Of a DNA stretch of 64,000 nucleotides, positions 11,530 through 52,025 are shown piece by piece. The notes beneath the pieces were generated by a model. That model worked only from the letters and a program-made list of their open reading frames with translations. It was not told the origin of the DNA and searched no databases. Numbering within the stretch: the first letter of the stretch is position 1; every line of letters starts with the position of its first letter. A program made the position numbers and the translations under genes. The stretch comes from an uncultured Gammaproteobacteria bacterium (GTDB lineage: Bacteria; Patescibacteriota; Patescibacteriia; CAZGFX01). Where the stretch lies: the NCBI GenBank assembly GCA_964524845.1, contig CAZGFX010000002.1, forward strand, positions 157,422 through 221,421. Direction: 5' to 3'.

Positions 11530-11847
11530 TTAGGCTTTTATTTTGTGGTCTGTTTTTCTCTCATGATCTTTTTCAAGTATATTTTTCAATATTTCGTGCA
11601 TTTCGTCAAAGGCTGCATAAAAATCTCCTGCGCTTCTCTCTACCTTATGGCTAATGCCATGTGGTATTTCAACAATAACATCGACAGTAAATACTTCTCC
11701 CTTATTATGATGGTGGTCTCTTTTTACAACAATATGAGCAAGCTCCATCTTATGGTCAAATTTTGTAAGTTTGCCCATTTTTTCATTTATATATTCCTTA
11801 ATTGTAGGTGTAAGCTCAAAATCCTTTGATGTTATGTTAATTTTCAT
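11530..11847 (-). CDS. hpf: ribosome hibernation-promoting factor / RaiA family
   Basis: 105 aa; MKINITSKDFELTPTIKEYINEKMGKL...VDVIVEIPHG is the S30AE/HPF fold signature. Confidence 0.8.
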   Translation of the reverse strand: MKINITSKDFELTPTIKEYINEKMGKLTKFDHKMELAHIVVKRDHHHNKGEVFTVDVIVEIPHGISHKVERSAGDFYAAFDEMHEILKNILEKDHERKTDHKIKA

Positions 11848-29637: not shown

Positions 29638-31041
29638 TTAAAAACCCAACTTATTTTTTAGATATTCTGGAATTTCCTTTATAGCGATACGCTCTTGTGC
29701 CATCGTATCACGATCTCTTATGGTTACAGCGGAATCTGTAAGTGAATCAAAGTCAAATGTTATACAATATGGCGTTCCGATTTCATCTTGTCTGCGATAT
29801 CTCTTTCCAATGCTTCCTGTTTCATCGTACGCCGATGAATATGTTTTTTGGAGCGACATGAAAAGATCATACGCAGGTCCAGAAAGCTCTTCTTTTTTTG
29901 AAAGAGGAAGTACCGCCACCTTATACGGAGCAATTCTAGGATGAAATCGAAGAACAACTTCAACTTCTTTCACCGCTTCAGTAGTTGTACTTCTACCTCC
30001 TTCTATTTCTGTATAAGCATCACATAAAAACGCCAACATCGCTCTATCAGCACCGGCAGATGTTTCTACAATCCACGGAGTAAAACGCTCTCCGGTTGTT
30101 TGCTCAAAATATTGCAAGTCCTTACCTGAAAACTTCATGTGTTGAGAAAGATCCCAATCACCTCTATTATGAATACCTTCAAGCTCTTTCCATCCTATTG
30201 GAAAATAAAACTCTATATCATGTGCGGCACGCGCGTAATGAGCCAACTCATGTTCTCCATGCGCTCTATATCGCAAATGATCTGGATTAATACCATGATC
30301 GATATACCACTGACGACGAATCTCTTTCCACTCCCCGAAATATCTATCCGCCTCATCAGGACGAACGAAATATTGTTGTTCCATTTGTTCAAACTCTCTC
30401 GTACGAAATATGAAATTACCCGGAGTAATCTCGTTTCTAAACGCCTTACCAACCTGTGCGATTCCAAAAGGAATTTTCATGCGCGAGCTTTCTCTTACAT
30501 TTTCATAGTTTACATAAATACCCTGAGCCGTCTCCGGACGAAGATACACATTCGATGTATCTGTTTCAACGGCTCCCATTTGGGTTTTGAACATAAGATT
30601 AAACTGACGAACTTCAGAAAGCTCTCCTCCGCAATCAGGACACACTATCTCGCTCGCCATTCGAACTCCTGGTGTAAAATTTGGCTTAAGTCCCTTCGCT
30701 TCTAGCAAGTGATCGGCGCGCCATCTTTTTTTGCACTCTTTACAATCAACTAATGGATCATGAAATCCATCAATATGTCCGGATGCCTTCCATATCATCG
30801 GATGCATAAATATAGAAGAATCAAGAGGAACAACATCGTCACGAAGTTGTGTCATAGATCTCATCCACGCTTGTTTAATATTGTTTTTCATTAGTGTTCC
30901 AAGCGGACCATAATCATAACAAGAATTAAGACCACCATATATTTCTGATGATTGAAATATAAAGCCACGGCGCTTCGCGAGACTTACTATCTTGTCCATC
31001 GTCATATTTGGCTTTTCGTCTTCTATTTTATTTTCTTTCAT
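29638..31041 (-). CDS. glyQS: glycyl-tRNA synthetase, alpha2 (eukaryote/archaeal-like) type
   Basis: 467 aa; class II motifs, characteristic GlyRS insertion and C-terminal anticodon-binding domain ([14 protein letters not shown]..., [13 protein letters not shown]). Confidence 0.9.
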
Positions 31042-31230
31042 ATTAAAATATATTACTTATTCACGTACTGGATTATGGCTTATTTTACAATAAAAGTGAA
31101 GTCCTGATTCTTTTTTTTCCATATATTTATACACTTTAAATTAATATGAAAAACAAAACAATCAAAAAAAGCGAATAAAAGCCAAAAAGATGAGGATTTT
31201 TAAGTTTTCCACACATAATAAACAATAGAC

Positions 31231-31259
31231 TTGACTTTTTAGGAAGGATGATGTATGCT
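31231..31259 (+). promoter_or_regulatory. near-consensus sigma70-type promoter TTGACT-17-TATGCT
   Basis: TTGACT at 31231-31236, exact 17-nt spacer, TATGCT at 31254-31259; predicted TSS about 31266. No protein gene lies downstream on this strand. Confidence 0.5.
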
Positions 31260-31341
31260 GTTAACACTTGCTTAATGCGAGATTAAATAACTGAAACAAG
31301 AACAATTAGAAATCCGTTGTAAACGGAGAAGGAGCACGCAA

Positions 31342-31398
31342 ATGGCAAGAGCATCCCCGCTCAATAAAATGAGCAGAACGTCCTTTGAAGAGAAGTAA
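31342..31398 (+). CDS. micro-ORF MARASPLNKMSRTSFEEK (18 aa) with GAAGGAG SD, 7-nt spacer
   Basis: gaGAAGGAGcacgcaaATG; codons verified to TAA at 31396-31398. Confidence 0.25.
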   Translation: MARASPLNKMSRTSFEEK

Positions 31399-31823
31399 CC
31401 CGGCCCGCGACCGCACGCCAGCCATAACCCGAAAAACTCGGTCGGCTGTCTGAGCAGCGGTCAAATCGGGAACGCGCCCGCAATCCAATTTGTATAATGA
31501 AAAAATTGGGCGCACTCCCGGCTCGAAAAAAAATCCGCAAAACAATGATCGCGGAACAAAAAGTCCGGAAAAACTCCGGCACGATGAAAAACAACAAGAA
31601 AAACGGGGATTCAGAAATGAAATTAGATCACGGCTAGATTTAGGGGCAAAAGAAAAGCCCCGAAAAAAGCTTCGAAAAGAGGCATAAACCGGAGATTATT
31701 TTAAAAAAACAACACAAACCTCTCCGGGAAAAAAATCCGGCAAACCGGCAATCATATGCGGCACCAAAAACCATGGAGGCTACAGTGAAAATGAGATACG
31801 GTTGAATGCAATAAATTACATAT

Positions 31824-31862
31824 AAGTCCTTGTTATAATGACAAGGACTTTTCCGTTTTTTT
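31824..31862 (+). terminator. strong intrinsic terminator (AAGTCCTTGT-tataatg-ACAAGGACTT plus TTCCGTTTTTTT)
   Basis: 10-bp perfect stem at 31824-31850, U-rich tail 31851-31862. Confidence 0.8.
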
Positions 31863-31982
31863 AATAACAAACATTGATATTTTTATATTTTTATATACAA
31901 TTAACACAGCCTGCTTGACAGGTACAAATAACCTAAATAACCGAACAAGAGCAGTCTTTGATGACTGTAAGGAGCGTGTATC

Positions 31983-32033
31983 ATGGTTAAGATCAGAGGT
32001 CAGACGTCTTATCTTAAGATGTCGAAAGCGTGA
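31983..32033 (+). CDS. micro-ORF MVKIRGQTSYLKMSKA (16 aa), TAAGGAG SD, 8-nt spacer
   Basis: gtAAGGAGcgtgtatcATG; stop TGA at 32031-32033. Confidence 0.25.
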   Translation: MVKIRGQTSYLKMSKA

Positions 32034-32122
32034 AAGCGAAAAGAAAAAGGCCGCTGTTTCTCCTCGTTTATCAGCATGATTTTGCTGAAACCACGGAAAA
32101 AAAACATGGAAGGAGGTTCATT

Positions 32123-32170
32123 ATGAACCGCATCCGTGCCCAAAACAACCTGCATCAAAAAATGATGTAA
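32123..32170 (+). CDS. micro-ORF MNRIRAQNNLHQKMM (15 aa), GGAAGGAGGT SD, 5-nt spacer
   Basis: catgGAAGGAGGttcattATG; stop TAA at 32168-32170. N-terminus M-x-[KR]-I-R-[GA]-Q is shared with the previous micro-ORF. Confidence 0.25.
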   Translation: MNRIRAQNNLHQKMM

Positions 32171-32293
32171 GCGCCAAAAAAGCAAGGTCTCACCCAAGAA
32201 GTACTGGTCACTCCATTTATCGCAACAAATTAAGCGCGGTATAGAAGCGTGCCAAGAAAAACTTGGAAATAAAAACATGAAAGGAGTTTCAAA

Positions 32294-32314
32294 ATGAAAC
32301 GAAATTATGGCTAA
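32294..32314 (+). CDS. micro-ORF MKRNYG (6 aa), AAAGGAG SD, 7-nt spacer
   Basis: catgAAAGGAGtttcaaaATG; the upstream context aaaaacatgRAAGGAG repeats that of the previous micro-ORF. Confidence 0.15.
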   Translation: MKRNYG

Positions 32315-32380
32315 CCCTTCTCACAAAGACAAAAGGTTTTGTCAAAACTCGAGAGCGAGAACGATATAATAATTATAAGA

Positions 32381-32411
32381 CCCCACCCGAAGAGGTGGGG
32401 CATTTTTTATT
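32381..32411 (+). terminator. intrinsic terminator (CCCCACC-cgaaga-GGTGGGG plus CATTTTTTATT)
   Basis: 7-bp all-GC stem at 32381-32400 with U-tract. Confidence 0.75.
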
Positions 32412-32565
32412 GAAAAATAAACAATATTAAAAAATAATTTAAAATAGCATTTTTAAATCGATAAATATTGCACCAAACCCATATTGACAAATACATCATC
32501 AAGTCGAAACAAATTAACAATACTCACACAAACATAAATATTATTCATTCGTTTCTCATTTCAAT

Positions 32566-32592
32566 AAAAAATGCCCCGGTTTTTAACCGAGG
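32566..32592 (-). terminator. terminator downstream of the subtilisin gene
   Basis: Minus strand GCCTCGGTT-aaaa-AACCGGGGC (8/9 bp) followed by ATTTTTTATT. Confidence 0.5.
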
Positions 32593-32611
32593 CAATAATA
32601 GTCTACGCATT

Positions 32612-34096
32612 TCATTTTACGATTGTGAGTTTTTTTGAGACAGGTTTCATGTGTTCAGACTGAAGTCTATATATATATATTCCTGAACTGACCGCATGAC
32701 CATCATCGTTTCTACCATCCCATGTGATGAAGTGTCTTCCCGGATACTGATATGCATCAAAAAAAGTTCTGACCTTCTGTCCGAGTGTATTATATAGAAT
32801 TACAGTGGTACGACCAGGTCGACTGATTACATACTCGATCGTAGTTGATACATTGAACGGATTAGGATAGTTCTGATTGAGTTCCACAGATGGTTTTTGA
32901 AATGATCCCCTCTCTGGAAATATCGCTTCAAAAATTTTTGGCAATGACACAGCATTCTGGCTACCACCATCTTTATCAAGCGCAATGTTTCCGTTTTCTC
33001 TTATAATGTTTTTTATATCAATATTCTTTCCTGTCATAATCATAAGAGCAACGATTCCTGCAACTTGCGGGGCGGCATAACTCGTACCATCAACCCTGTG
33101 ATATCTAGAACCACACCATGTGGTCAGTACCTTGTTTCCAGGAGCAAACGCATCAACACTACCGAAATTAGACCAGTAAGAAACAGTTCCTACGGAATCG
33201 AGACTTCCTACTGATATGACGGATTTGTATCCGTTCGTTGAAATACGACCAAAATTCGTATAATGAGCTGGAAATACGGACATGTTCCATCCTTCGTTTC
33301 CGGAAGAGCACACGAAATAAATCTGAATTCCTGCAGAATCCGCTTTTTGTTCAGCGGTACGAATTAATTCTTCCCACGCCATAAGATCAAATTTTAAACC
33401 AAGACTCCAATTGATAACAAGATTTTTCTTGTTTTGAACAGCCCACAGAATTCGATCGTTTGCGGCAATAAGGATTGTACTTACATATCCATATCCATTG
33501 TCTTCGAGCACTCGCACCGCATACACATCTCCACAAGAAATACCGAATACTCCTTTTTTATTGTTCGCAGTAGCGCCGACAATGCCGGCTATTTCCGTAC
33601 CATGAACAAAAACCTCTTTCGGAACATACTCCATGGAATCTCCGTGTAGAACAGTATAGTTTTTCCCAAGTTTTATATTCTGAAGATCTTGATGTTCAAT
33701 TACCCACTTATCAGATCGTCGAACAAGTTCAATTCCGGAGTCATGAATATCAATCACAGTGTTTGACGGATCCAAAAGGTCGCCGTACTTTTGAAATACT
33801 GAAAAGAGTTCCATGTATTCAATAGCCCAGCTTCGCAATGGATCATTCGGATCAAACCGATATTGAGTTTTGTTTGACCCATATGCGGTCACCAAAGCAT
33901 CTTCTTCAATAACCTCAACTGAAGTGGTTTTTAAAAAAGATTTTGTCTCAACCTTGTACCAACTTCCAAACACATGCACCGCATTATTTGGAATATCTTT
34001 TTCGTTTTTCATCTTTATCAGATATCCTTGAGAATATCCTGAAAAAGAAATCAAAAAAGAAAAAGCAATCGTAATAATTACTTGAAATGTTCTCAT
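32612..34096 (-). CDS. secreted subtilisin-like (S8) serine protease with type IX secretion system C-terminal sorting domain
   Basis: Signal peptide; HGTEIAGIVGA (His box), GTSYAAPQVAGIVALM (Ser box); C-terminal 85 aa LNQNYPNPFNVSTTIEYVISRPGRTTVILYNTLGQKVRTFFDAY...ITWDGRNDDGHAVSSGIYIYRLQSEHMKPVSKKLTIVK is the Por_Secre_tail/T9SS type-A CTD pattern (NYPNPFN...G-Y-Y-L...KK-L-K). Confidence 0.85.
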   Translation of the reverse strand: MRTFQVIITIAFSFLISFSGYSQGYLIKMKNEKDIPNNAVHVFGSWYKVETKSFLKTTSVEVIEEDALVTAYGSNKTQYRFDPNDPLRSWAIEYMELFSVFQKYGDLLDPSNTVIDIHDSGIELVRRSDKWVIEHQDLQNIKLGKNYTVLHGDSMEYVPKEVFVHGTEIAGIVGATANNKKGVFGISCGDVYAVRVLEDNGYGYVSTILIAANDRILWAVQNKKNLVINWSLGLKFDLMAWEELIRTAEQKADSAGIQIYFVCSSGNEGWNMSVFPAHYTNFGRISTNGYKSVISVGSLDSVGTVSYWSNFGSVDAFAPGNKVLTTWCGSRYHRVDGTSYAAPQVAGIVALMIMTGKNIDIKNIIRENGNIALDKDGGSQNAVSLPKIFEAIFPERGSFQKPSVELNQNYPNPFNVSTTIEYVISRPGRTTVILYNTLGQKVRTFFDAYQYPGRHFITWDGRNDDGHAVSSGIYIYRLQSEHMKPVSKKLTIVK

Positions 34097-34285
34097 TTTT
34101 TCCTCCTTTTTTTCAGTCAGATTCGTCTATTTTCTTTTTAGAGAAAATGGCTCTTGGCTGAATTTTTTAATATTTTGTTTATTAATTCTATATTAACACA
34201 CAAATATCAAAATGTCAAACAAAATTGCTTGAATTCTACCATGAAATACAGTATAGGAGTTCTAAAAAAAACCATTTTAAAAACC

Positions 34286-41750: not shown

Positions 41751-44700
41751 TTATTGGTTTTCTACCATACTTACATCTGTTCCCGTTTCGCTCGTAGGAG
41801 TTGTTTCGCCTGATGATGTTGTGGTCACAGGAGTTGAAACAGGTTGATCAACAATAACTGGAGAAGCTGGGGTTTCCGGAATAGGCTCACTTGTTTCTAT
41901 TATCTCCGCAAGCGAATCTGTTGGTGGTGTTGGATTGTTTATATATATTGGTACGTTTGGATTTATCGTATCGCGATTAATCTGATCTGTACCCACTTCG
42001 AATGCGAGCCATGTCACATCAACAAACTTCGCACAACCAGGTTCAGTCGCGACATCACACACGGGCTCTGACATCTCTATATCAAAACCTTCTTCGGTTT
42101 GATTACTTACCCATACGCGTCCTTTCCACGATCTAGCAGTATCAGGATCTTCAAACTTCGGCGTCAATGAAACAAGAACCTCATTTTTTTTCGGTGCGAC
42201 AAATGCAATATGTTGTGTTATTTGATTATATGAAAATCTAACAGACCCTGCCACATCTTTTGAAACAACCGAGAGACCACCTTTCAATTCAAGATTCTTT
42301 TCAAGTGTTACTGCATCCCGTACGACAAGTGTTCCTTGTATTTCAACATTTCCTTTCACGACAAGATCTTTTTCAAATACCGCTTTTTCTTTCACAACAA
42401 GAGCACCCGTCAAAGACATTATTGCAACATCAATTTGTAAACCATCTCCCAAAGACCATTTATTGTATTGAGGATTAATGTCTTCAACAATATTTTGTAC
42501 GTTAGGATCTGGTGTTTGCTGAACATCGCTTGGATCAATATAGACTCCTTGTATATCTCCTGCGCTAGGCTGTACCTGAACATCATCATCGCCTTCGACT
42601 ACTTCTTCGTCATCAAAAACAAGACTTAAACCATATAATTCATCAGTCGTGGCCATTCCAATCCAATATTGCGGTTGAACAAAAACAATAACTGAATTAG
42701 TACTTGGTTCAATACCCGAACTCCATCCGCTCATCGCCTGTCCGACAACGAATCCAGGACCGGTTGCTTTGATAGCATATCCTGGCATATCAGGAGATGA
42801 AGATAGATAATCACCAGTCACAATATCAGCAGAATGATTTATATCAATCTTCACAGGTACTCGACCGACAAGCACGACAAGTTTTGAAGACTGATCGTCA
42901 GAAGTTGTTTCAAGTGTTGTGTTTGGATGTTCCGTAACAACTCCGATAACACTCTTACCAGATGTACGAGTTGCTTTAACAACCGACTCCGAATCAGACG
43001 GATCAATTGAAACCAAATCTCCTTGTTCTATTGATAAATCACCAACTTGATAATACTTAGCGAGATCAAATACTTGTCTATTAAGTTCATTTAAAGCACC
43101 GACAATTGATGTTGATGTGAATGTCCCATCAAGTTTCGTATTTGTATCATCCGCAAGCGCGATTGGTGATTCTGTGTGTGAATCAGCAAGTCCGTTTCCT
43201 ACATTTACGGTATCAGTCACTACTATATTTTTCGCAGTGAGTGTTCCTGCTCCGTTTGTTGAAATCAGCCCTCCGTCTGATGAGAATGATCCGATGGTAA
43301 GCGTACCACCAGAAATTCCGCTAGTTACAGCTAAATTATTGACCGATAGTGTTCCTAGTCCGTTTGATGTAATAAGACCATTATCAGATGAAAATGAGTT
43401 TGTTTTTATTGTGCCTGTTGTAATATTTCCCAAACCATCTGATTGTATTACTCCTCCGTCAGACGAAATTTTTGGCAATGAAAGCGCAAGCGTTCCGTTC
43501 ATAAGAGGATCGAGAATATTTGTTTTTGTTTTTTGCATCTCTTTGAGAAGCAACACGGATAGAATTTCATAATGAACGGAATCTGGGCGACCCTGATTAT
43601 CGAAAAACACAAGCTGAGGAAGAACTTCCGCTGCTTCTTCCGCAATCAAACCAAATGTCCTATTCTCTGGTAGATCAGGAAGCTCGTTTGGCGTATAACT
43701 TACTGGTCTCAAATCAAATATTTTCGATGTATCAGTTTCTATATCTGTAATACTCTTTTTATATCGTCGTGATGATGTATATTTAAATAATTGATTACTA
43801 CCATTTATATGAATAGCAGTACCTGCCGTACCACTCGAAGGAAGTCCATCAAAAGCAACTGTACTACTAGCATAAAAAGATCCTTCTATTTCTGTATAAC
43901 CCAAAAACGAATCTCCATTAACAAAAAAATCATTATCAGCTTCCAATCTTCCACCATAAAAATAGGCATCCCCATCTGAGGTAATAGAAAATCTGTTCAC
44001 ACTGTTTGTTTCTATATTAAAATCATTTGGGCCTGAGTTGGAATAAACTAAAACATTAGTATCGGAAAAAGCTATCTGTGGATCCTCGCTAGTAAGAAAA
44101 AGACTTCTATTCATATCTATGGAAGATCCGATTGTTATATTACTATCATCCGGGTCACCTAATATTAATTCGCGACCACTATATGAGACTGTAAGTGCCG
44201 TACCAGTCCAAGCACCACCATCACCTGACATAGACATTTTAAACTTACTAATATTAGGTGCAGAAGTATCAATACCCATAGAAACAGTATCATCGCCTGA
44301 TTTAAACATTAAAGTAGCATCCCCGGTACCCATTTGTTCTATTTTCAACATTGGTGTTGTTTCGGTACTGTTTTCATATATATGAAAATTTGCACTTGGT
44401 GCATTTGTGCCTAATCCAAATCTAATACTCGTTCCATTATAACCAGTATATCTAATATAAGAGTCTTCAAAATATCCTAATTTCATCTCTAAAGAATCAT
44501 CGTAAATTCCAGATAAATTTACCGATCCATCGCTAGGCATTACTCTAAAAAAACCATAAGAATTATCAAAAGTTGGCGGGTAAGATCCATCATTAAAACC
44601 TATAACAAAATCGTCATAAGATGTCGAACTATCAATACCCATTACATAATGTCCTGATGAAGACGATGTGTCAGAAACAAATCCAATTGCCGGATCTCCT

Positions 44701-47700
44701 GTACCAGCTTGTTGCAACATAAGCATAGGAGTTGTCTGTGTAGAGTTTTCATACAAGTGAAGATTCGTACTTGGAGTAGCAAAACCAAGTCCTATATTTC
44801 CACTCGAATCAATAACAAACCTATCACTTGTTCCAAGTCCTGTCGTGCTTATTTTAAACTTATCACTATCAGAATCATCTACGCCCATGGTAAATGAATT
44901 CGTTCCTTCAGCAAGTTGAAACCCAATCGCAGTATCATAATCACCTGCATTTGTGTTTACAACAAAAACATTTGTGTTTATAGCAGATGAAGATGCTACA
45001 TCAAGCATTGCATCTGGCGACGTATCACCTATACCCATATATCCATTACTGTTTATACGCATTCTTTCATAAAGATCACCATTAAGTGATGTTTGCAATG
45101 AAAAATAACTGTCTCGTGTCGAAGCGGTATCGTTCCACGCACCCTCAGTCCCAACGATAATTCGCGCCGACCCATCAACTCCTGGATCATCCACGGATCC
45201 TGAAAACCACTGATTAAACAAAACTCCTGTCTGTGTATTAGAAGAAGCTTGTCTTGTGTTCGTTATCTCAATAAAATCTGTAAGACCTCCATCAGTTCCC
45301 GTTTGTTCTATATCAAGAAGTGACGATGGTGGATATAATGGATTAGAAAAAGCTCCTACTCCAACAAGTCCGCCACTTGTTACAGATAAACGACGTGTTC
45401 CTGCTGTCGTGAGATCAATGGTATCTGCTCCAGATGAGTATACACCAGTATTTGTATCTCCAACAAAAGATATTGAAGGATTTCCTACTGCACCCAGAGG
45501 ATGATAAGCGTATCCACTTGAATTAACTTGAAACAAATCCCCACTACCGACTGTGAAGAGTGACGCAGGAGACGAATCTCCTATACCAACATATCCTGCA
45601 TTATCAACACGCATAGCTTCAATCATGCTTCCTGTATTTCTTACATTAAAACGCATCGACGAGACACCAGAATTAACACCCGCACTCTCCCAAACAGTAT
45701 CTATACTTCCGGCTTCAAGTCCCATACCATCATTATCCTCAAGATATGTGACAATTCCAGACCCAAGTCCTGTATTATCCATTGATGGACGAGTTACGTT
45801 CATAGTCAGTGTATCAATCACAGTGGCTGTGGTATTTGCTTTTGACAAATGAAGAATACTAGAAGGAGTATTCGTTCCTATTCCTATATTTCCACTCGAA
45901 TCAATTACAAACCTATCGTTTGTACCAAGCGCTGTTGTAGATATTTTAAACTTATCAGAATCAGAATCATCAATACCCATAGTAAAAGTATTTGTTCCAT
46001 CAGCGAGTTCAAAACCTATTTGAGAATCGTAATTTCCTGCATTCGTATTTGAAATTGTAAACTGAGTATTTGCTGCACCTGATGACATAATTTCAAGAAG
46101 TTGATCTGGTGTTATGTCTCCTACACCAACGTTTCCTCCATAAAGAAGTGTCATAACAGTGTTTGAAAGCGTCTGCCCATTAGTTGTGCCAGAAGAAAAA
46201 GCCAGATCGTTTGTATTCTGTTTGTGTATTGTCCAATCACCATATCCTCCTCCTTGATTATCAAATGTCAACCAGTTATATACACTTGAGTTTGCTTGAT
46301 TACTAGAAATAGTAAACTTACTATAAGATGTTGCCGTAGTACCAACACTTATGTTTCCAGAAGAATTAATCGTCATACGATTTGTTCCTCCTGTAGCAAA
46401 ATCTAGGGCATCTGCTCCTGATGAGTATATACCAGTGTTCGGATCACTGACAAAAGACACCGACGGTGTTCCTACTGCTCCGAGAGGATAAAGCGCATAT
46501 CCACTTGAATTAACCTGAAACAAATCTCCATTTCCGACTGTGAGAAGTGATGCTGGTGTCGCATCACCAATACCAACATTTGCGCTTAATATGTTCACAT
46601 AATCTGTCGCTTGATCATCGAATGCTATTCGTCCGGCAATTGATCCAAGACCCAACCAATCATCGTCTGCATTCGCATCAGAAAAAGCATCACCAGAAGT
46701 CATAGAACCAACAGATGTTACATCACCTGTTCCAGCAGATACCCATGTTAAATTTCCACTTCCATCGTTTCGAAGAACTGTATTTGATGAACCCTGAGAA
46801 CCAGGCCACGAGTATGTTACATTATTAACTTTTACGATGTTTCCGGATGAGTTGACTTGAAACAAATCACCATCTCCAACAGTAAATAAAGACGCTGGCG
46901 TTGCGTCACCAACACCAAGGTTTGCGCTCATTATATTTACATAATCGGTGGCCTGATCATCAAACGCAACTCGTCCAGCACTTGCTCCAAGTCCGAGCCA
47001 ATCATCATCAGCATTCGCATCCATAAAAACATCCCCTCCTGTCATAGAACCGACTGTTGTAATATCTCCTGTTCCTGAACCCGTAACCCATGTGAGTGTT
47101 CCGCTTCCATTATTGCTTAATACAGTACCTGCACCTCCTTGTGCTGACGGCCACGAGTATGTAACATTATTAACTTTTACGAGGTTTCCTGATGAGTTTA
47201 CTTGAAATGTATCTCCGCTACCTACTGTAAGAAGAGATGCTGGTGTCGTCTCTCCAATACCGACGTTCGCACTCAAAATATTTACATAATCGGTAGCCTG
47301 ATCATCAAAAGTAATACGTCCAGCAGCTGCTCCAAGTCCAAGCCAATCATCATCAGCATTCGCATCCATAAAAACATCTCCCGATGTCATAGAACCAACC
47401 GTAGTTATATCACCAGTTCCTGAAACGGTAACCCAGGTAAGATTACCACTTCCATCGTTTCTTAAGTATGTGTTTGATGCTCCCTGAGAAGCTGGCCACG
47501 AATATGAAACATTATTTACTTTTACAAGATTACCGTATGAGTTAACTTGAAATAAGTCTCCGTTTCCAACTGTGAAAAGAGATGTCGGTGAAGAATCTCC
47601 TATACCAATATATCCTTCATAACTAATTCTAAAAGCCTCTGACATTGAGCTGTTATTCATGTGATTAAATATTACAGAGGCTTTTTCTCTTGTTTCACGA

Positions 47701-50700
47701 GGATCCTCCCACACGACATCAATTCCAGCCGCCTGAGACAAACCATCTTGATCGTTTTCCAAATAAAATCCAATGCTGGCACCGAGTCCTTGAGCACCAG
47801 AACTATCATAATTTATTCTCTCTATACGTAACGCCTCCATAATATCAGACGCATCATTCTGAGAAAGAACCGAGAGTGTAGAAGCCGGAGTACTTGTACC
47901 AACACCAAGCCTATTATTTGTATCATCCCAGAATAGATTTGAATTATCTTGAGTGTACACACCACTTCCCCCAGCAAATACAAGTGAGCCCGATGTAAAT
48001 TGAGTACCGGTTCCTGTACCGCCTCTTGTAACATTTAAATATTGTTCTGATGTTAATGAGTTTGTTCCATTCCAATACGCTATATATCCGTTTGTTCCTG
48101 TTCCTGTTGCAACAGTTCCTGATGTTGGAAGCGTAATACTTGTAGCTCCTGATGTTGTAAAAAATAGCGTGTTCCCTGCAGTACCAAGAGGAACAACACC
48201 GGTATTATCTTGAAAAGTTATCGTCTTATCAGATACTGTTGGATCTGTTATAGCAAATGTTGTTTCGTATGTGTTGTCTGTTGCTCCTTCAAAAACCAGA
48301 GGAGAGGCACCTTGAATAACACCTCCGAGAGTCAGTGCATTAGAAGCGTTTCCGATCGATACAGCACCAGTTGATGTCCCTGTGTTTATATTTGTAGTAA
48401 AGTTTGAACTTGCATTTATAGAAGACGTTGCTCCTGACACAGTAAGTCCTCCTGTTCCTTGTATAACTCCTGTTGTTGAGTTAACACCAACAAAAGATGC
48501 TGCACCAGCACCTGAAACAGACCATTGTCCATCTGTAATAACAACATTTGCTGATGCATTTCCTATTGTAACCGTCCCCGTTGATGTACCGGTGTTTATG
48601 TTTGTAGCAAAATTTGAACCATGATTAATATATACAGTGTTTCCTGAAGTTACAAAAGAACCAGTGTTTGTAATACCCCGAACAGAAACTATTGCACCAG
48701 ATGAATTTACTTGAAACAAGTCTCCATTTCCTACAGTAAACAAAGAATCCGGAGATGAATCACCCACACCAACGTTTCCTCCATTAAAAACAGCAGAATA
48801 TGTGTTGTCACGACTATTTGCAGTATCAGTATCAACATATAAACCTGTAATTGTGTTTCTATATCCTCCAAAATCATCGTCTATGTTTATATGCATACCA
48901 TACACGGTGTCCACATAATCCTCGTTTTGTGGATTGTTTGAAATATTTAATTTATATCCATATAGTGTAGCAATATCACTTGGATTCATTGTTACATTAT
49001 GAGAAATACTTGAGGAAGCATCGGTTTGTAGATCTAAAGAGGTCAAACTAAGAACGGGATTTGTTACATCGCTTGACGAAATAGATATTGTATCATCTGT
49101 AATAGATGGCGAAAGGTTTGTTCCTGATCTGGTCCAATATCCCAGCGTTCCTGTTGATGGTGGTGTTGTAGTAAGATACCCTGAAGAATCAGTATATACA
49201 CCACTTTCCGTACCGAGCGAATTAAATAAAATATTTCCTGATGATGCTAAACCAGTGAGACCTGATGCGACACCGGCTGACGACACGTCCCACGATGATG
49301 TGTTTATAGCGAGCGTGTTTGATCCACCACCGATTGATACGGCGCCGGTTGATGTTCCTGTATTTATGTTTGTCGCGAAATTAGAACTTGCGTTCAATGA
49401 TACTGCTCCACCCGAGCTTGTCACTGCTCCAGTGTTTGTAATTCCTTGAACAGATGCTATTGCGCCAGATGAGTTGACTTGAAAAAGATCTCCGTTCCCT
49501 ACTGTGAAAAGAGATGCAGGAGTTGTATCTCCGATACCAATATTTCCTGCAGGAGTGATATTTAAAAATTCGTTCGTTCCTTCTAGAATACGCAAATTAC
49601 CTTCGCTTGACCCATCTGTTTCTTGTATACCGATTTTCCAATCGCGAGCAGTCGTTGTTTCGGCTGCGGTTGAATATACATGAAGCGATGATGGTCCTAA
49701 ATATAAATCTCTCCAACGCAAAGAAGACGATCCGAGATCATAAGAATCATCACTGTTTGGTCCAACTGATCCGGCAACTTGTAATTTAAATGTCGATGGT
49801 GCACTTGTGCCAACACCAACGTTTCCACTACTATTAACATATAAACTATTTACAGATGCGCCATCCTCAATTACAAAAACATTGATACTACCTCCTGTCG
49901 TATCTTGAATTCTAAAATCATCGTTTGCATTCACACCCATTTTCCATTGCCTAGCATCATTAATAAAATCAAAATCAGCAGCTCCATTAAGACCTGTATT
50001 TTCTATTCTTCCTGCAATATAACTTCCGGCCGCTGATCCAGAAACATGCAATCTTTGTTGAGGACTAGCAGTCCCGATCCCAAGCCTATTATTCGTATCA
50101 TCCCAAAAAAGGTTTGTATTATCTTGTGAGTACACTCCGCTTCCTCCAGCAAACACTAGTGATCCTGAAGTAAACTCAGTACCTGTACCGGTACCACCAC
50201 GTCCAACAGAAAGGTATTGTTCTGATGTTAATGAGTTTGTTCCATTCCAATACGCGACGTATCCATTTGTACCAGTTCCTGTTGCCATGGTTCCTGATGT
50301 TGGAAGAGTTATGCTTGTTGCTCCTGATGTTGTAAAAAATAGTGTGTTCCCTGCAGTGCCAAGAGGAACAACACCGGTATTATCTTGAAATGTTATTGTC
50401 TTATCAGATGCAGTGGTATCAGTGATTGAAAATGTAGTCTCATAAGTATCGTCTGTAGCTCCTTCAAACACAAGAGGAGAAGCACCCTGAATAATACCTC
50501 CTAGAGTTAATGCATTAGAAGAGTTTCCAATTGATACAGCTCCTGTTGATGTGCCTGTGTTTATATTTGTCGCAAAATTAGAATTTTCGTTGATAGATGA
50601 CGAGGCACCAGACACAGTAAGTCCTCCTGTTCCTTGTATAAGTCCTGTGGTTGAATTAACACCGACAAACGAAGCTGCACCAGCACCTGAAACAGACCAT

Positions 50701-52025
50701 TGTCCATCTGTAATAGCAACATTTGCTGATGCGTTTCCTATTGTAACGGTACCGGTTGATGTTCCTGTGTTTATATTCGTTGCAAAGTTTGAATTTGCAT
50801 TTAAAGAGATGACCGCACCACTTGCTGTGGTTGTTCCTGTAACAGTAAGGCCGGTTAAGCCTGATGCGACACCGGCTGATGACACATCCCACGATGATGT
50901 ATTTATTGCTAGTGTATTTGAATTTCCACCTATTGATACAGCACCCGTTGATGTTCCTGTATTGATGTTTGTCGCGAAATTAGAACTTGCATTCAGAGAT
51001 GCTATTCCGCCACTGGTTGTAGTTGCTCCCGTAACAGTAAGGCCGGTAAGACCTGATGCGACACCGGCTGACGACACGTCCCACGATGATGTATTTATTG
51101 CTAGTGTATTTGAATTTCCACCGATTGATACGGCGCCGGTTGATGTTCCTGTGTTTATGTTTGTAGCAAAATTAGAACTTGCGTTCAAAGATATTGCTGC
51201 GCCCGAGCTTGTGACTGCTCCAGTGTTTGTAATTCCTGTCATGTATGATGTTCCGTCCACTTCGAGATCATTCTGAATATATAAATCACCAAGTCCATCG
51301 GCGTTGTTTGCTGTACCAGCTGAACCAGTACGGATAAGTCCTCCATCTAGAACCCGAAGAGCGGATGTGCCATTGTCCTGTACATCGAGAATACCTCCTG
51401 TTCCTTGTTGATTGATGACGATCGCTGATCCACTTGATGTATTTACGGTCACAGATGTATTTGCTTGAAATGTGTATGATCCTGTTATTGTTTCGTTTTC
51501 TGATGTGTCTGCAAATTCTTCTTCTGATTTACCATCAAGAGCGTCTGTGTTAAATGCATAAGGAGATGCGGTCATTCTTTTTCTTGGCAAAAAAACTTCT
51601 TCGTACGATCCATTGTTATCAGCATCAAGACGAACCTCGAGATATAAGTTATCAGTATTGAAATCAAGAGAACCAGGAAGAGATGTATGAGTTCCTATAT
51701 CAACTGAGAATATTCCATCAGTAAGTGAAACTTGAGATGTTCCTGAATTCCACGTCTCTGTATAAGCGGCCGATCCTCCTGTGCTAACTGTAAAAAATGC
51801 AAACTGCATATTGTAACTGCTGTTTGCAATATTAATACCATTTGATGCTGTGATCTTGGCTTGATAAGAAAGTTTTTTGTTTATACCTGCGGCACCATAA
51901 ACAATCGGCACCCACGTAAAAAACAAACACGCTAAAACAAGCGCGGTAAGAAGCTTCCTTAAGACTGAAAATCGTATTAAAACAAGCATGGTAATTTTTA
52001 CGAAAACCTTTTCAGTTAGCGCCAA
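41751..52025 (-). CDS. giant (3424 aa) membrane-anchored, repeat-rich fibre-like surface protein with an internal phage tail-fibre S74-type intramolecular-chaperone-like module
   Basis: N-terminal TM/signal; Gly/Ser/Thr/Asn-rich beta-repeats; recurring motif [IV]G[IV]GDxxPxSL[FL]TVGxGDxFQVNSSG (tail-fibre-like NVGIGT..P class); about 64-aa and about 113-aa tandem repeat families; a large block duplicated 2160 nt apart. About 679 aa from the C-terminus lies SSRRYKKSITDIETDTSKIFDLRPVSYTPNEL...GLIAEEAAEVLPQLVFFDNQG...YEILSVLLLKEMQ (pattern of the peptidase-S74 chaperone domain), then a Pro/Thr-rich C-terminus. Confidence 0.85.
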   Translation of the reverse strand: MALTEKVFVKITMLVLIRFSVLRKLLTALVLACLFFTWVPIVYGAAGINKKLSYQAKITASNGINIANSSYNMQFAFFTVSTGGSAAYTETWNSGTSQVSLTDGIFSVDIGTHTSLPGSLDFNTDNLYLEVRLDADNNGSYEEVFLPRKRMTASPYAFNTDALDGKSEEEFADTSENETITGSYTFQANTSVTVNTSSGSAIVINQQGTGGILDVQDNGTSALRVLDGGLIRTGSAGTANNADGLGDLYIQNDLEVDGTSYMTGITNTGAVTSSGAAISLNASSNFATNINTGTSTGAVSIGGNSNTLAINTSSWDVSSAGVASGLTGLTVTGATTTSGGIASLNASSNFATNINTGTSTGAVSIGGNSNTLAINTSSWDVSSAGVASGLTGLTVTGTTTASGAVISLNANSNFATNINTGTSTGTVTIGNASANVAITDGQWSVSGAGAASFVGVNSTTGLIQGTGGLTVSGASSSINENSNFATNINTGTSTGAVSIGNSSNALTLGGIIQGASPLVFEGATDDTYETTFSITDTTASDKTITFQDNTGVVPLGTAGNTLFFTTSGATSITLPTSGTMATGTGTNGYVAYWNGTNSLTSEQYLSVGRGGTGTGTEFTSGSLVFAGGSGVYSQDNTNLFWDDTNNRLGIGTASPQQRLHVSGSAAGSYIAGRIENTGLNGAADFDFINDARQWKMGVNANDDFRIQDTTGGSINVFVIEDGASVNSLYVNSSGNVGVGTSAPSTFKLQVAGSVGPNSDDSYDLGSSSLRWRDLYLGPSSLHVYSTAAETTTARDWKIGIQETDGSSEGNLRILEGTNEFLNITPAGNIGIGDTTPASLFTVGNGDLFQVNSSGAIASVQGITNTGAVTSSGGAVSLNASSNFATNINTGTSTGAVSIGGGSNTLAINTSSWDVSSAGVASGLTGLASSGNILFNSLGTESGVYTDSSGYLTTTPPSTGTLGYWTRSGTNLSPSITDDTISISSSDVTNPVLSLTSLDLQTDASSSISHNVTMNPSDIATLYGYKLNISNNPQNEDYVDTVYGMHINIDDDFGGYRNTITGLYVDTDTANSRDNTYSAVFNGGNVGVGDSSPDSLFTVGNGDLFQVNSSGAIVSVRGITNTGSFVTSGNTVYINHGSNFATNINTGTSTGTVTIGNASANVVITDGQWSVSGAGAASFVGVNSTTGVIQGTGGLTVSGATSSINASSNFTTNINTGTSTGAVSIGNASNALTLGGVIQGASPLVFEGATDNTYETTFAITDPTVSDKTITFQDNTGVVPLGTAGNTLFFTTSGATSITLPTSGTVATGTGTNGYIAYWNGTNSLTSEQYLNVTRGGTGTGTQFTSGSLVFAGGSGVYTQDNSNLFWDDTNNRLGVGTSTPASTLSVLSQNDASDIMEALRIERINYDSSGAQGLGASIGFYLENDQDGLSQAAGIDVVWEDPRETREKASVIFNHMNNSSMSEAFRISYEGYIGIGDSSPTSLFTVGNGDLFQVNSYGNLVKVNNVSYSWPASQGASNTYLRNDGSGNLTWVTVSGTGDITTVGSMTSGDVFMDANADDDWLGLGAAAGRITFDDQATDYVNILSANVGIGETTPASLLTVGSGDTFQVNSSGNLVKVNNVTYSWPSAQGGAGTVLSNNGSGTLTWVTGSGTGDITTVGSMTGGDVFMDANADDDWLGLGASAGRVAFDDQATDYVNIMSANLGVGDATPASLFTVGDGDLFQVNSSGNIVKVNNVTYSWPGSQGSSNTVLRNDGSGNLTWVSAGTGDVTSVGSMTSGDAFSDANADDDWLGLGSIAGRIAFDDQATDYVNILSANVGIGDATPASLLTVGNGDLFQVNSSGYALYPLGAVGTPSVSFVSDPNTGIYSSGADALDFATGGTNRMTINSSGNISVGTTATSYSKFTISSNQANSSVYNWLTFDNQGGGYGDWTIHKQNTNDLAFSSGTTNGQTLSNTVMTLLYGGNVGVGDITPDQLLEIMSSGAANTQFTISNTNAGNYDSQIGFELADGTNTFTMGIDDSDSDKFKISTTALGTNDRFVIDSSGNIGIGTNTPSSILHLSKANTTATVIDTLTMNVTRPSMDNTGLGSGIVTYLEDNDGMGLEAGSIDTVWESAGVNSGVSSMRFNVRNTGSMIEAMRVDNAGYVGIGDSSPASLFTVGSGDLFQVNSSGYAYHPLGAVGNPSISFVGDTNTGVYSSGADTIDLTTAGTRRLSVTSGGLVGVGAFSNPLYPPSSLLDIEQTGTDGGLTDFIEITNTRQASSNTQTGVLFNQWFSGSVDDPGVDGSARIIVGTEGAWNDTASTRDSYFSLQTSLNGDLYERMRINSNGYMGIGDTSPDAMLDVASSSAINTNVFVVNTNAGDYDTAIGFQLAEGTNSFTMGVDDSDSDKFKISTTGLGTSDRFVIDSSGNIGLGFATPSTNLHLYENSTQTTPMLMLQQAGTGDPAIGFVSDTSSSSGHYVMGIDSSTSYDDFVIGFNDGSYPPTFDNSYGFFRVMPSDGSVNLSGIYDDSLEMKLGYFEDSYIRYTGYNGTSIRFGLGTNAPSANFHIYENSTETTPMLKIEQMGTGDATLMFKSGDDTVSMGIDTSAPNISKFKMSMSGDGGAWTGTALTVSYSGRELILGDPDDSNITIGSSIDMNRSLFLTSEDPQIAFSDTNVLVYSNSGPNDFNIETNSVNRFSITSDGDAYFYGGRLEADNDFFVNGDSFLGYTEIEGSFYASSTVAFDGLPSSGTAGTAIHINGSNQLFKYTSSRRYKKSITDIETDTSKIFDLRPVSYTPNELPDLPENRTFGLIAEEAAEVLPQLVFFDNQGRPDSVHYEILSVLLLKEMQKTKTNILDPLMNGTLALSLPKISSDGGVIQSDGLGNITTGTIKTNSFSSDNGLITSNGLGTLSVNNLAVTSGISGGTLTIGSFSSDGGLISTNGAGTLTAKNIVVTDTVNVGNGLADSHTESPIALADDTNTKLDGTFTSTSIVGALNELNRQVFDLAKYYQVGDLSIEQGDLVSIDPSDSESVVKATRTSGKSVIGVVTEHPNTTLETTSDDQSSKLVVLVGRVPVKIDINHSADIVTGDYLSSSPDMPGYAIKATGPGFVVGQAMSGWSSGIEPSTNSVIVFVQPQYWIGMATTDELYGLSLVFDDEEVVEGDDDVQVQPSAGDIQGVYIDPSDVQQTPDPNVQNIVEDINPQYNKWSLGDGLQIDVAIMSLTGALVVKEKAVFEKDLVVKGNVEIQGTLVVRDAVTLEKNLELKGGLSVVSKDVAGSVRFSYNQITQHIAFVAPKKNEVLVSLTPKFEDPDTARSWKGRVWVSNQTEEGFDIEMSEPVCDVATEPGCAKFVDVTWLAFEVGTDQINRDTINPNVPIYINNPTPPTDSLAEIIETSEPIPETPASPVIVDQPVSTPVTTTSSGETTPTSETGTDVSMVENQ
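46480..47560. repeat. three tandem copies of an about 339-nt (113-aa) unit inside the giant gene (VNNVTYSWP..QG...DANADDDWLGLG..AGRIAFDDQATDYVNILSANVGIGDATPASLLTVG)
   Basis: Near-identical DNA blocks starting near 46520, 46861 and 47200. Confidence 0.7.
50540..51290. repeat. intragenic tandem repeats of about 192 nt (64 aa: ASSNFATNINTGTSTGAVSIGGNSNTLAINTSSWDVSSAGVASGLTGLTVTG...) inside the giant gene; further copies near 48380-48620 and 49255-49450
   Basis: Repeated peptide strings visible on both the coding strand and antisense ORFs (50551-51276, 48382-48624, 49255-49449). Confidence 0.7.

Follow-up and report, generated by a model that had tools for sequence, protein, structure and literature searches.

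Two tandem units, U1 (~31266-31862) and U2 (~31908-32412), lie on the plus strand of a 1.57-kb gene-free gap (31042-32611) between glyS and the gene of an S8 peptidase, in a 64-kb stretch of DNA from contig CAZGFX010000002.1 that was analysed in full and is here called the window (36.7% G+C). The DNA belongs to an uncultured, Magasanikbacteria-like member of the Patescibacteria (Candidate Phyla Radiation, CPR). The reading favoured here, which we hold at a probability of about 0.4, is that U1 and U2 are lineage-specific, stand-alone, mRNA-like small RNAs of 0.5-0.6 kb in which ribosome loading is selected more than the encoded peptides. The feature itself is real and statistically solid; it is unclassified, is larger than was first noticed and comes from a single genome.

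Strong Shine-Dalgarno sites that lead only to micro-ORFs

Between 31266 and 32412 a Shine-Dalgarno (SD) sequence, AAGGAG, is followed after 3-9 nt by ATG four times. Dinucleotide-preserving shuffles of this segment (n = 5000) gave on average 0.048 such pairs and never more than 2 (0/5000 reached 3), confirming the original prediction that four such pairs lie far above expectation. The remaining 126 kb, both strands included, contains ten such sites, six of which start long open reading frames (ORFs). Related CPR loci totalling 1.6 Mb contain a single other non-genic cluster of strong-SD micro-ORFs, with two members. Chance is excluded as the origin of the cluster. Although A-rich, G-containing DNA raises the background of AGGAG-type strings, the shuffles and the single two-site cluster in the CPR loci make it exceedingly improbable that SD-like strings and ATGs gathered fortuitously in non-coding DNA rich in purines.

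The four ORFs are all on the plus strand and begin with ATG. In U1 the 18-codon ORF at 31342-31398 (peptide MARASPLNKMSRTSFEEK) is preceded at 7 nt by AAGGAG. The three SD-led micro-ORFs of U2 are present, together with the U1 ORF, as originally described: ORF1 at 31983-32033 (16 codons, MVKIRGQTSYLKMSKA; TAAGGAG at 8 nt), ORF2 at 32123-32170 (15 codons, MNRIRAQNNLHQKMM; AAGGAGGT at 5 nt) and ORF3 at 32294-32314 (6 codons, MKRNYG; AAGGAG at 7 nt). The ORFs of minigene size in the units are those of six codons that start at 31617, 32106, 32277 and 32294 (ORF3) and one of four codons at 31791. The longest plus-strand ORF in the gap has 65 codons, a TTG start and no SD, and two independent Logan assemblies contain no gene call there. 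On these predictions each unit corresponds to the generic description of a small RNA bearing small ORFs, namely an independent unit without a long ORF.

The predicted SD duplex energies of the micro-ORFs range from -8 to -12.4 kcal/mol and rank with those of the strongest four to five of the 36 long ORFs in the window, most of which have a weak SD or none (median ~-1 kcal/mol; glyS none), figures that are approximate as long-ORF starts were taken as longest-ORF starts. The SD of ORF2 (-12.4 kcal/mol) exceeds that of every long ORF in the window, while that of the U1 ORF is -8.0 kcal/mol. The first SD of each unit is predicted to be open, with an unpaired probability of 0.62 in U1 and 0.73 at U2 ORF1. 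A few long ORFs also have a very strong SD, among them the S8 peptidase gene (AAGGAGG at 34108).

The peptides, of 4-18 residues, are basic and hydrophilic. A type I toxin-antitoxin system was considered and rejected, as it needs a hydrophobic toxin of ~20-60 residues. The shared N-termini that were originally noted are weakly supported at the peptide level (in post hoc tests, P ~0.03 for ORF1 against ORF2 and P = 0.013 for three peptides together). This likeness bears on the view that the units are a micro-peptide cassette, in which the peptides of 18, 16, 15 and 6 residues are themselves the functional products. The strength and predicted exposure of the ribosome-binding sites (RBSs) would suit such a role, as would the weak pattern M-x-[KR]-[AI]-[SR]...L-x-K-M-[SM] across the three longer ORFs, to which the joint P value refers and whose Arg and Ser come from unrelated codons (AGA vs CGT, AGC vs TCG), and the string M-K-x-[DN]-[HY]-G-stop, which is kept between two of the modules described below (U1a and C). 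The likeness is, however, marginal and post hoc, the lengths vary (six codons in one copy, 15 after loss of a stop in another), six-residue primary products have little precedent, and most of each transcript is predicted to be untranslated yet highly structured. A cassette of functional peptides is thus unlikely.

Organization of the two units

U1 and U2 were delimited by consensus scans, which place a sigma-70-like promoter and an intrinsic terminator at the ends of each. The predicted U1 promoter (31231-31259) comprises a -35 box, TTGACT, a 17-nt spacer and a -10 box, TATGCT, and is followed by TTAACAC at the predicted start. Hairpin 1 (31267-31281; CUUGC-UUAAU-GCGAG) precedes an AAATAAC string, and hairpin 2 (31313-31327; UCCGU-UGUAA-ACGGA) abuts the SD of the 18-codon ORF (31329-31398; SD AAGGAG, ATG at 31342, TAA at 31396). 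Downstream lies a G+C-rich core (31401-31590) with hairpins GACCGC...GCGGUC, CGGGA-GCGCCC...GGGCGC-UCCCG and UCCGC...GCGGA, a GC fraction of 0.52 against 0.367 in the window, an AT skew of up to +0.54 and local fold z scores of -2.3 to -2.9. Module U1a (31595-31637), with a degenerate SD (GGGGA) and the six-codon ORF MKLDHG at 31617-31637, is the counterpart of module C in U2. A further module, U1b (31765-31805), follows 174 nt after U1a and aligns weakly; it consists of AAAAACCATGGAGG and the mini-ORF MRYG at 31791-31805 (ATGAGATACGGTTGA). The unit ends at a predicted intrinsic terminator (31824-31862) with a 12-bp stem and a T-run.

The predicted U2 promoter (31874-31901; TTGATA-16-TACAAT, 10/12 matches) is likewise followed by TTAACAC. 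A weak TTGACA was proposed originally; the exact hexamer is present at 31915-31920, but as a promoter it lacks a -10 box and is inferior to the one above, and in the predicted fold it falls in the loop and 3' arm of U2 hairpin 1. The 5' leader (31909-31967) contains this hairpin (CCUG-CUUGA-CAGG), AAATAAC twice and hairpin 2 (31952-31967; CAGUC-UUUGAU-GACUG), which abuts the SD, TAAGGAG, of ORF1 (31968-32033 with its SD). Codons 2-12 of ORF1 lie in an imperfect hairpin with 15-nt arms (31987-32017). An anti-SD-like string, CUCCUC, was seen by eye between ORF1 and module B (32060-32065). Module B (32088-32170) consists of an A-tract, a nested six-codon ORF (ATGGAAGGAGGTTCATTATGA, 32106-32126), a hairpin (32105-32138) and ORF2, and module C (32259-32314) repeats this layout 171 nt further on, with a nested ORF at 32277-32297, a hairpin at 32276-32309 and ORF3. 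The strong terminator reported after ORF3 was located at 32381-32400 (CCCCACC-CGAAGA-GGUGGGG), extending to 32410 with its T-run, and is predicted to be intrinsic. Beyond position 32410, 200 nt of AT-rich spacer precede the convergent S8 peptidase gene. A perfect 19-nt inverted repeat, GGGGCATTTTTTATTGAAA, at 32397-32415 and 32559-32577, 143 nt apart, is common to the convergent terminators of U2 (plus strand) and the S8 peptidase gene (minus strand) and has no other copy in the window.

The short ORFs and terminators recall leader peptides, and a leader or attenuator role was among the original suggestions. No plus-strand gene lies downstream of either terminator, however, and no string was seen that would pair with the 5' arm of the terminator. 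In U2 no upstream complement to CCCCACC was found by eye, and no pattern search was run. A classical leader-peptide attenuator has an SD-led ORF and a terminator, as here, but it also has a regulated downstream gene; because no gene follows either terminator, it is excluded. An orphan attenuator that senses drugs or stress, with stalling at an Arg/Lys-X-Arg/Lys (+X+) motif remodelling the RNA, is highly improbable. The motif, which is the main ketolide/macrolide stalling motif (PMC8298421, PMC12583479), does occur in two of the three longer ORFs (K3-I4-R5 in ORF1, R3-I4-R5 in ORF2), at the same codon positions near the N-terminus. Such a motif is cheap in A-rich sequence, where Lys and Arg codons are frequent, and the same lack of a plus-strand gene and of a visible antiterminator (judged in U2 by eye only) counts against this possibility.

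U1 and U2 look like tandem diverged paralogues

The duplication that was noted upstream of ORF2 and ORF3 is borne out: AAAACATGRAAGGAGKTTCA occurs exactly twice in the window (32101 and 32272; 0.08 expected), each time within a 43-nt repeat whose copies are 77% identical and lie 171 nt apart. In the predicted fold of module B the outer stem is CAUGGA/UCCGUG and the inner, 6-bp stem GGUUCA-UUA-UGAACC; their counterparts in module C are CAUGA/UUAUG and GUUUCA-AAA-UGAAAC. In both modules AGGA lies in an internal loop between the stems, and the inner stem contains the last SD bases and the AUG. The hairpin of B has a free energy of -14.9 kcal/mol (z -3.1) and that of C -7.0 kcal/mol; in the comparison of the two, 23 of 24 cells are paired, and two compensatory and two one-sided compatible changes separate them. 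The possibility raised originally, that the SDs pair inside a conserved RNA structure, applies to B and C only, where the SD is in the internal loop and the AUG in the apical hairpin.

In both B and C the nested six-codon ORF starts at CATG, spans the SD and ends in ATGA, overlapping the next start. Codon 7 of ORF2 (Gln7, CAA) is aligned with the TAA stop of ORF3, and ORF2 therefore looks like a six-codon ORF that has lost its stop.

A DNA-level explanation of the palindromes GGTTCA-TTA-TGAACC and GTTTCA-AAA-TGAAAC was rejected. Their half-sites resemble those of parS (GTTTCAC/GTGAAAC), but a parS-type role does not fit, as the spacing is wrong and the window has two copies and one chance match. 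A TIGR or CRISPR-like array was discarded because there are no regular repeats. Module B agrees in 25 of 26 positions with the start of a phage gene for a Dam methylase, RBS and first codons included (ACATGAAAGGAGGTTCATTATGAACCG; IMG/VR contigs, 9325-9347 and 2716-2738). The phage is an unrelated, high-GC one, and the match was judged a chance likeness of textbook initiation regions; a viral, phage or plasmid origin was rejected.

The duplication appears to be wider than claimed, as the whole promoter-to-terminator unit containing the duplicated modules has a diverged paralogue just upstream. U1 and U2 look like tandem diverged copies at both ends. Their 5' regions follow a common order: a -10 box, TTAACAC, a hairpin of 4-5 bp, AAATAAC and a second hairpin of 5-6 bp, whose sequence is unrelated in the two units and which ends 0-1 nt before the SD in both. 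The hairpins are followed by [G/T]AAGGAGC, an ATG 7-8 nt on and an ORF of 16-18 codons. TTAACAC-N-AAATAAC is found in the window only at U1 and U2. Towards the 3' end a block of ~100 nt (31535-31636 in U1, 32220-32313 in U2) aligns with a score of 50, compared with 30.7 +/- 4.4 in shuffles, and ends in six-codon ORFs with matching start, frame and stop (ATGAAATTAGATCACGGCTAG, MKLDHG, against ATGAAACGAAATTATGGCTAA, MKRNYG). Three of the four codons between Lys2 and Gly6 differ between the U1a and module C ORFs, while start, frame and stop are kept; relative to module C the SD of U1a is weakened to GGGGA. The U1a-U1b spacing (174 nt) matches that of B and C (171 nt).

Folding and base composition

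Both units fold far better than shuffled sequences, the minimum free energy having a z score of -5.6 for U1 and -4.7 for U2. Local z scores reach -4.8 inside U1 and -3.2 inside U2, away from the terminators, to which the signal is not limited. The plus strand of both is A-rich and T-poor, with an AT skew (+0.3 to +0.54) that is the extreme of the window (window sd 0.12), whose coding regions peak at ~0.40. G+C is concentrated in the predicted stems, and the greater part of A is left unpaired (0.79 in U1). A gene with recoded TGA was considered, as frame 0 of U2 has TGA-only stops over 129 codons. It was excluded because TGA serves as an ordinary stop in this DNA, ending 8 of the 33 ORFs of >=200 codons; the TGA-only frame is attributable to the T-poor composition of the region.

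The composition bears on whether U1 and U2 act as sponges or decoys that titrate a protein (CsrA-like on GGA, or Hfq/Crc-like on AANAANAA), 30S subunits, or tRNAs in the manner of lambda bar-type minigenes. The SDs are exceptionally strong for a genome that rarely uses SD, and AANAANAA occurs nine times in U1 against 2.0 expected (P = 0.0035), although this A-tract enrichment may reflect composition alone. Minigenes of 3-8 codons with a strong SD tie up tRNA in the form of peptidyl-tRNA (PMC2490762), and regulation by a minigene is known from axe-txe (PMC8708949). Conversely, GGA/ANGGA is not enriched (GGA 10 vs 10.6 expected in U1, 6 vs 8.5 in U2) and seven of the ten GGA in U1 are predicted to be paired, so that a CsrA-type sponge is unsupported. 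In total the genome was read over ~84 kb, the window having been extended by flanks of ~20 kb, and no csrA was found among the annotated neighbours. We consider a sponge of any of these kinds quite unlikely.

Genomic setting and comparative searches

The gap is flanked by glyS (29638-31041) and the S8 peptidase gene (32612-34096), both on the minus strand, the latter convergent to U2. On the glyS side the genes are serS, a class II aminoacyl-tRNA synthetase (aaRS) of Lys/Asn/Asp type, cysS, dus, tatD, cvpA, metG, rsmI and glyS, and on the other side tgt, recO and ileS. This is a housekeeping neighbourhood, nearly all of it on the minus strand, opposite to U1 and U2. Translation genes are unusually dense at 2702-41655 (serS, the Lys/Asn/Asp-type class II aaRS, cysS, metG, glyS, ileS, tgt, dus and rsmI), a stretch that also contains a hibernation factor gene (Ribosomal_S30AE, 11530-11847). 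Further on, a giant ORF of 3424 codons (41751-52025, minus strand) is flanked by large ORFs with TSP3, dockerin and Ig-like repeats, a surface-protein cluster.

The glyS gene has its own promoter, TTCACT-17-CATAAT (31072-31100, minus strand), inside a 40-nt stretch that is identical in the closest relative. As the 5' untranslated region from this conserved promoter is only ~25 nt, there is no T-box leader for glyS here; a T-box or other glyS leader was also rejected because the units are on the opposite strand.

The S8 peptidase carries FlgD_ig, and a match to Por_Secre_tail, a sorting domain of type IX secretion system kind, is weak and below the cutoff (21.8 vs 27 bits). No orthologue was found among 5.8 billion protein clusters; the best foreign matches span only the C-terminal 16-18%, and one weaker match, of 31%, spans 53%.

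Protein searches with GlyRS, the S8 peptidase and Tgt recovered only the source population, which is present in two Logan runs with identical DNA, and one relative with 93% GlyRS identity. The contig of this relative (ENA ERZ27247864, 1959 nt) stops right at the U1 -35 box. Over the 205 nt in common the two sequences are ~86% identical by our own count from the alignment, and both the U1 -35 box with its flank (CTTGACTTTTTAGGA) and the glyS promoter are identical. Beyond this relative the nearest GlyRS is at 66-68% (GTDB genomes, JGI metagenomes and a 5.8-billion-cluster protein library), and GlyRS-anchored scans of genome and metagenome contigs gave 160 loci with a best identity of 67%. In the 66-68% relatives co-directional genes directly precede glyS with gaps of <100 nt, one of them keeping the order glyS...rsmI-metG-cvpA, and the gap and orphan S8 peptidase are therefore regarded as lineage-specific. 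On the sequences compared, U1, U2 and the S8 peptidase appear to form a lineage-specific island adjoining glyS.

Searches for the units themselves returned nothing. Neither blastn nor nhmmer matched U1 or U2 to any of the collected loci, blastn found no match in phage and plasmid collections, and the ~20 kb of extra flanks hold no further copy. Rfam 15 gave no match in 64 kb at the gathering threshold, the best by E value in 31000-32700 being an animal microRNA model with 21 bits against a threshold of 80, and no tRNA or tmRNA was found. In ten out of ten cases, spurious ORFs of the region were absent on exact look-up in a 15-billion-protein collection, and an 89-residue minus-strand ORF had a single marginal, repeat-like match (E = 3.8e-4) among 1.84 billion protein representatives. 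A different unit was seen in a CPR genome with 58% GlyRS identity (FLOH01000167.1, 3000-3350, plus strand): a gene-free predicted transcript of ~300 nt with a promoter, TTGACA-17-TATGAT, a terminator, CCGCTAAAAGCGG with a T-run, five GGAGG-type motifs and a fold z of -5.6. It has no Rfam match and no sequence likeness to U1 or U2.

Function or decay

The setting gives some weight to the view that U1 and U2 are decaying relics, a duplicated small-gene cassette or gene starts that arrived with the S8 peptidase island and are now eroding without function. The island is absent from the nearest relatives with their closely spaced genes before glyS, the S8 peptidase has no orthologue anywhere searched, U1a and U1b are degenerate, ORF2 looks like a mini-ORF minus its stop and the peptides are barely alike. 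The likeness of module B to the phage Dam methylase RBS can be read in the same way, since a string that starts a real gene suggests that module-like strings are ordinary gene starts. Decayed copies of gene starts, which the original prediction allowed for, found no support in what was searched. Pfam searches of the region in six frames (E <= 1) gave nothing credible, which argues against a protein-family pseudogene, and no module-like gene start was found elsewhere in the window and flanks; a weak match at 43549 lies inside the giant ORF and was dismissed as chance.

Function is preferred to decay because four perfect SDs at the right spacing, two promoters and two strong terminators are intact, because the fold signal is strong and spread along both units, because U1 and U2 both retain a hairpin directly before the first SD although its sequence differs between them, and because the hairpin of B and C is kept through compensatory change. 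The A/T skew of the units, which goes beyond that of the window's coding regions, is likewise at odds with eroded genes. We therefore regard relics as somewhat unlikely, while noting that this is the leading alternative.

Within the functional reading, loading rather than peptide sequence is put forward as the selected trait because peptide conservation is poor and ORF length varies, while start and stop positions are conserved. Both the marginal peptide likeness and the apparent loss of the ORF2 stop fit selection for position over sequence. Ribosomes would load at the SD sites of U1 and U2 and translate the minimal ORFs, and selection would act mainly on this loading, that is on the presence and position of a ribosome on the RNA. 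An occupying ribosome may shield the RNA against decay or determine how it folds; analogous protection of RNA by a ribosome at a strong SD is known from Bacillus subtilis hbs (PMC5737220) and from STAB-SD (PMC4113751). The peptides, poorly conserved between copies, would be under less selection. Translation of ORF2 and ORF3 may be gated by the two-helix hairpin of their own module (B or C), which encloses the AUG, and is possibly coupled to that of the nested six-codon ORF via the ATGA stop-start overlap.

Several observations weigh against ribosome-loaded small RNAs. The transcription and translation of U1 and U2 are predictions from the sequence, and their promoters and terminators are consensus matches only. 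The likeness of the 5' blocks is weak at the sequence level (z = 2.8), other segments of the window scoring higher, and with two sequences the covariation between B and C falls short of significance, its value being reached in 128 of 500 shuffles. The SDs of U1a and U1b are degenerate, and neither module forms the hairpin of B and C, which also fits decay. None of the duplexes of U1 and U2 with 37 translation-initiation regions of the window rose above shuffled controls. As no orthologue was recovered, conservation is judged from diverged paralogous copies, two to four in number, within one genome.

A broader proposal is that U1 and U2 represent a new class of ribosome-engaging regulatory RNA in an ultra-small symbiont, with arrays of very strong SDs and minigenes in a genome that otherwise hardly uses SD. 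The modules might trap ribosomes (30S or 70S) or, through drop-off on the short ORFs, specific tRNAs, and thereby tune global translation capacity, or the RNA might sense the supply of ribosomes or aminoacyl-tRNA. The units do adjoin many aaRS and tRNA-modification genes, but we consider this proposal decidedly unlikely.

The non-coding and small-ORF biology of CPR is almost unexplored, and large public resources gave nothing for this 1.1-kb element, which carries some of the strongest RBSs in 64 kb, leading only to ORFs of 4-18 codons. U1 and U2 are a testable candidate for ribosome-loading regulation, RNA stabilization or micro-peptides in a streamlined symbiont. If they are relics, they would document the recent gain and decay of an island adjoining glyS in a genome thought to have little slack.

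Comparison with known systems

Dual-function small RNAs, such as RNAIII/hld of Staphylococcus aureus, SR1/SR1P of B. subtilis and SgrS/SgrT of Escherichia coli, carry ORFs of 26-43 codons. U1 and U2, as predicted here, are like them in being structured units of a few hundred nucleotides with their own promoter and terminator and a short RBS-led ORF. They differ in having no sequence or Rfam kinship, three SD/mini-ORF modules per RNA rather than one, shorter ORFs (6-18 codons) and no pairing target among the 37 initiation regions. Tandem paralogous small RNA pairs include PrrF1/PrrF2, OmrA/OmrB and AbcR1/2. Like these, U1 and U2 are two diverged copies that follow one another head to tail and have a predicted promoter and terminator apiece, but they are 3-5 times longer and mRNA-like, and Rfam excludes homology.

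In size, paralogy and repeated motifs the units resemble CsrB/C, RsmY/Z and CrcZ/Y. Specifically, U1 and U2 share with CsrB/RsmZ and CrcZ a length of 0.4-0.6 kb, a paralogous pair and repeated purine- or A-rich motifs between hairpins, while, unlike in CsrB/RsmZ, GGA is not enriched and is mostly paired.

The erm and cat leaders combine a short leader ORF, hairpins and a second SD. Similarly to erm, cat and msr leaders, the units have short SD-led ORFs, two of them (ORF1 and ORF2) with +X+, hairpins predicted to occlude a second RBS and a terminator (PMC8298421), but they have neither a regulated downstream gene nor a visible antiterminator alternative. The six-codon ORFs of the units (31617, 32294 and, nested, 32106 and 32277) are built like the lambda bar, synthetic 3-8-codon and axe-txe minigenes, with a strong SD, a few codons and a stop. 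The putative minigenes of U1 and U2 differ in being arrayed in long, predicted structured RNAs with their own promoters.

The STAB-SD of B. thuringiensis cry and the hbs 5' region differ from U1 and U2 in that their SD protects a downstream coding mRNA, whereas no ORF of >18 codons lies downstream here. The units are nevertheless like both in having a very strong SD near a 5' stem-loop, the arrangement in which, in STAB-SD and hbs, a bound ribosome blocks 5'-to-3' decay (PMC4113751, PMC5737220).

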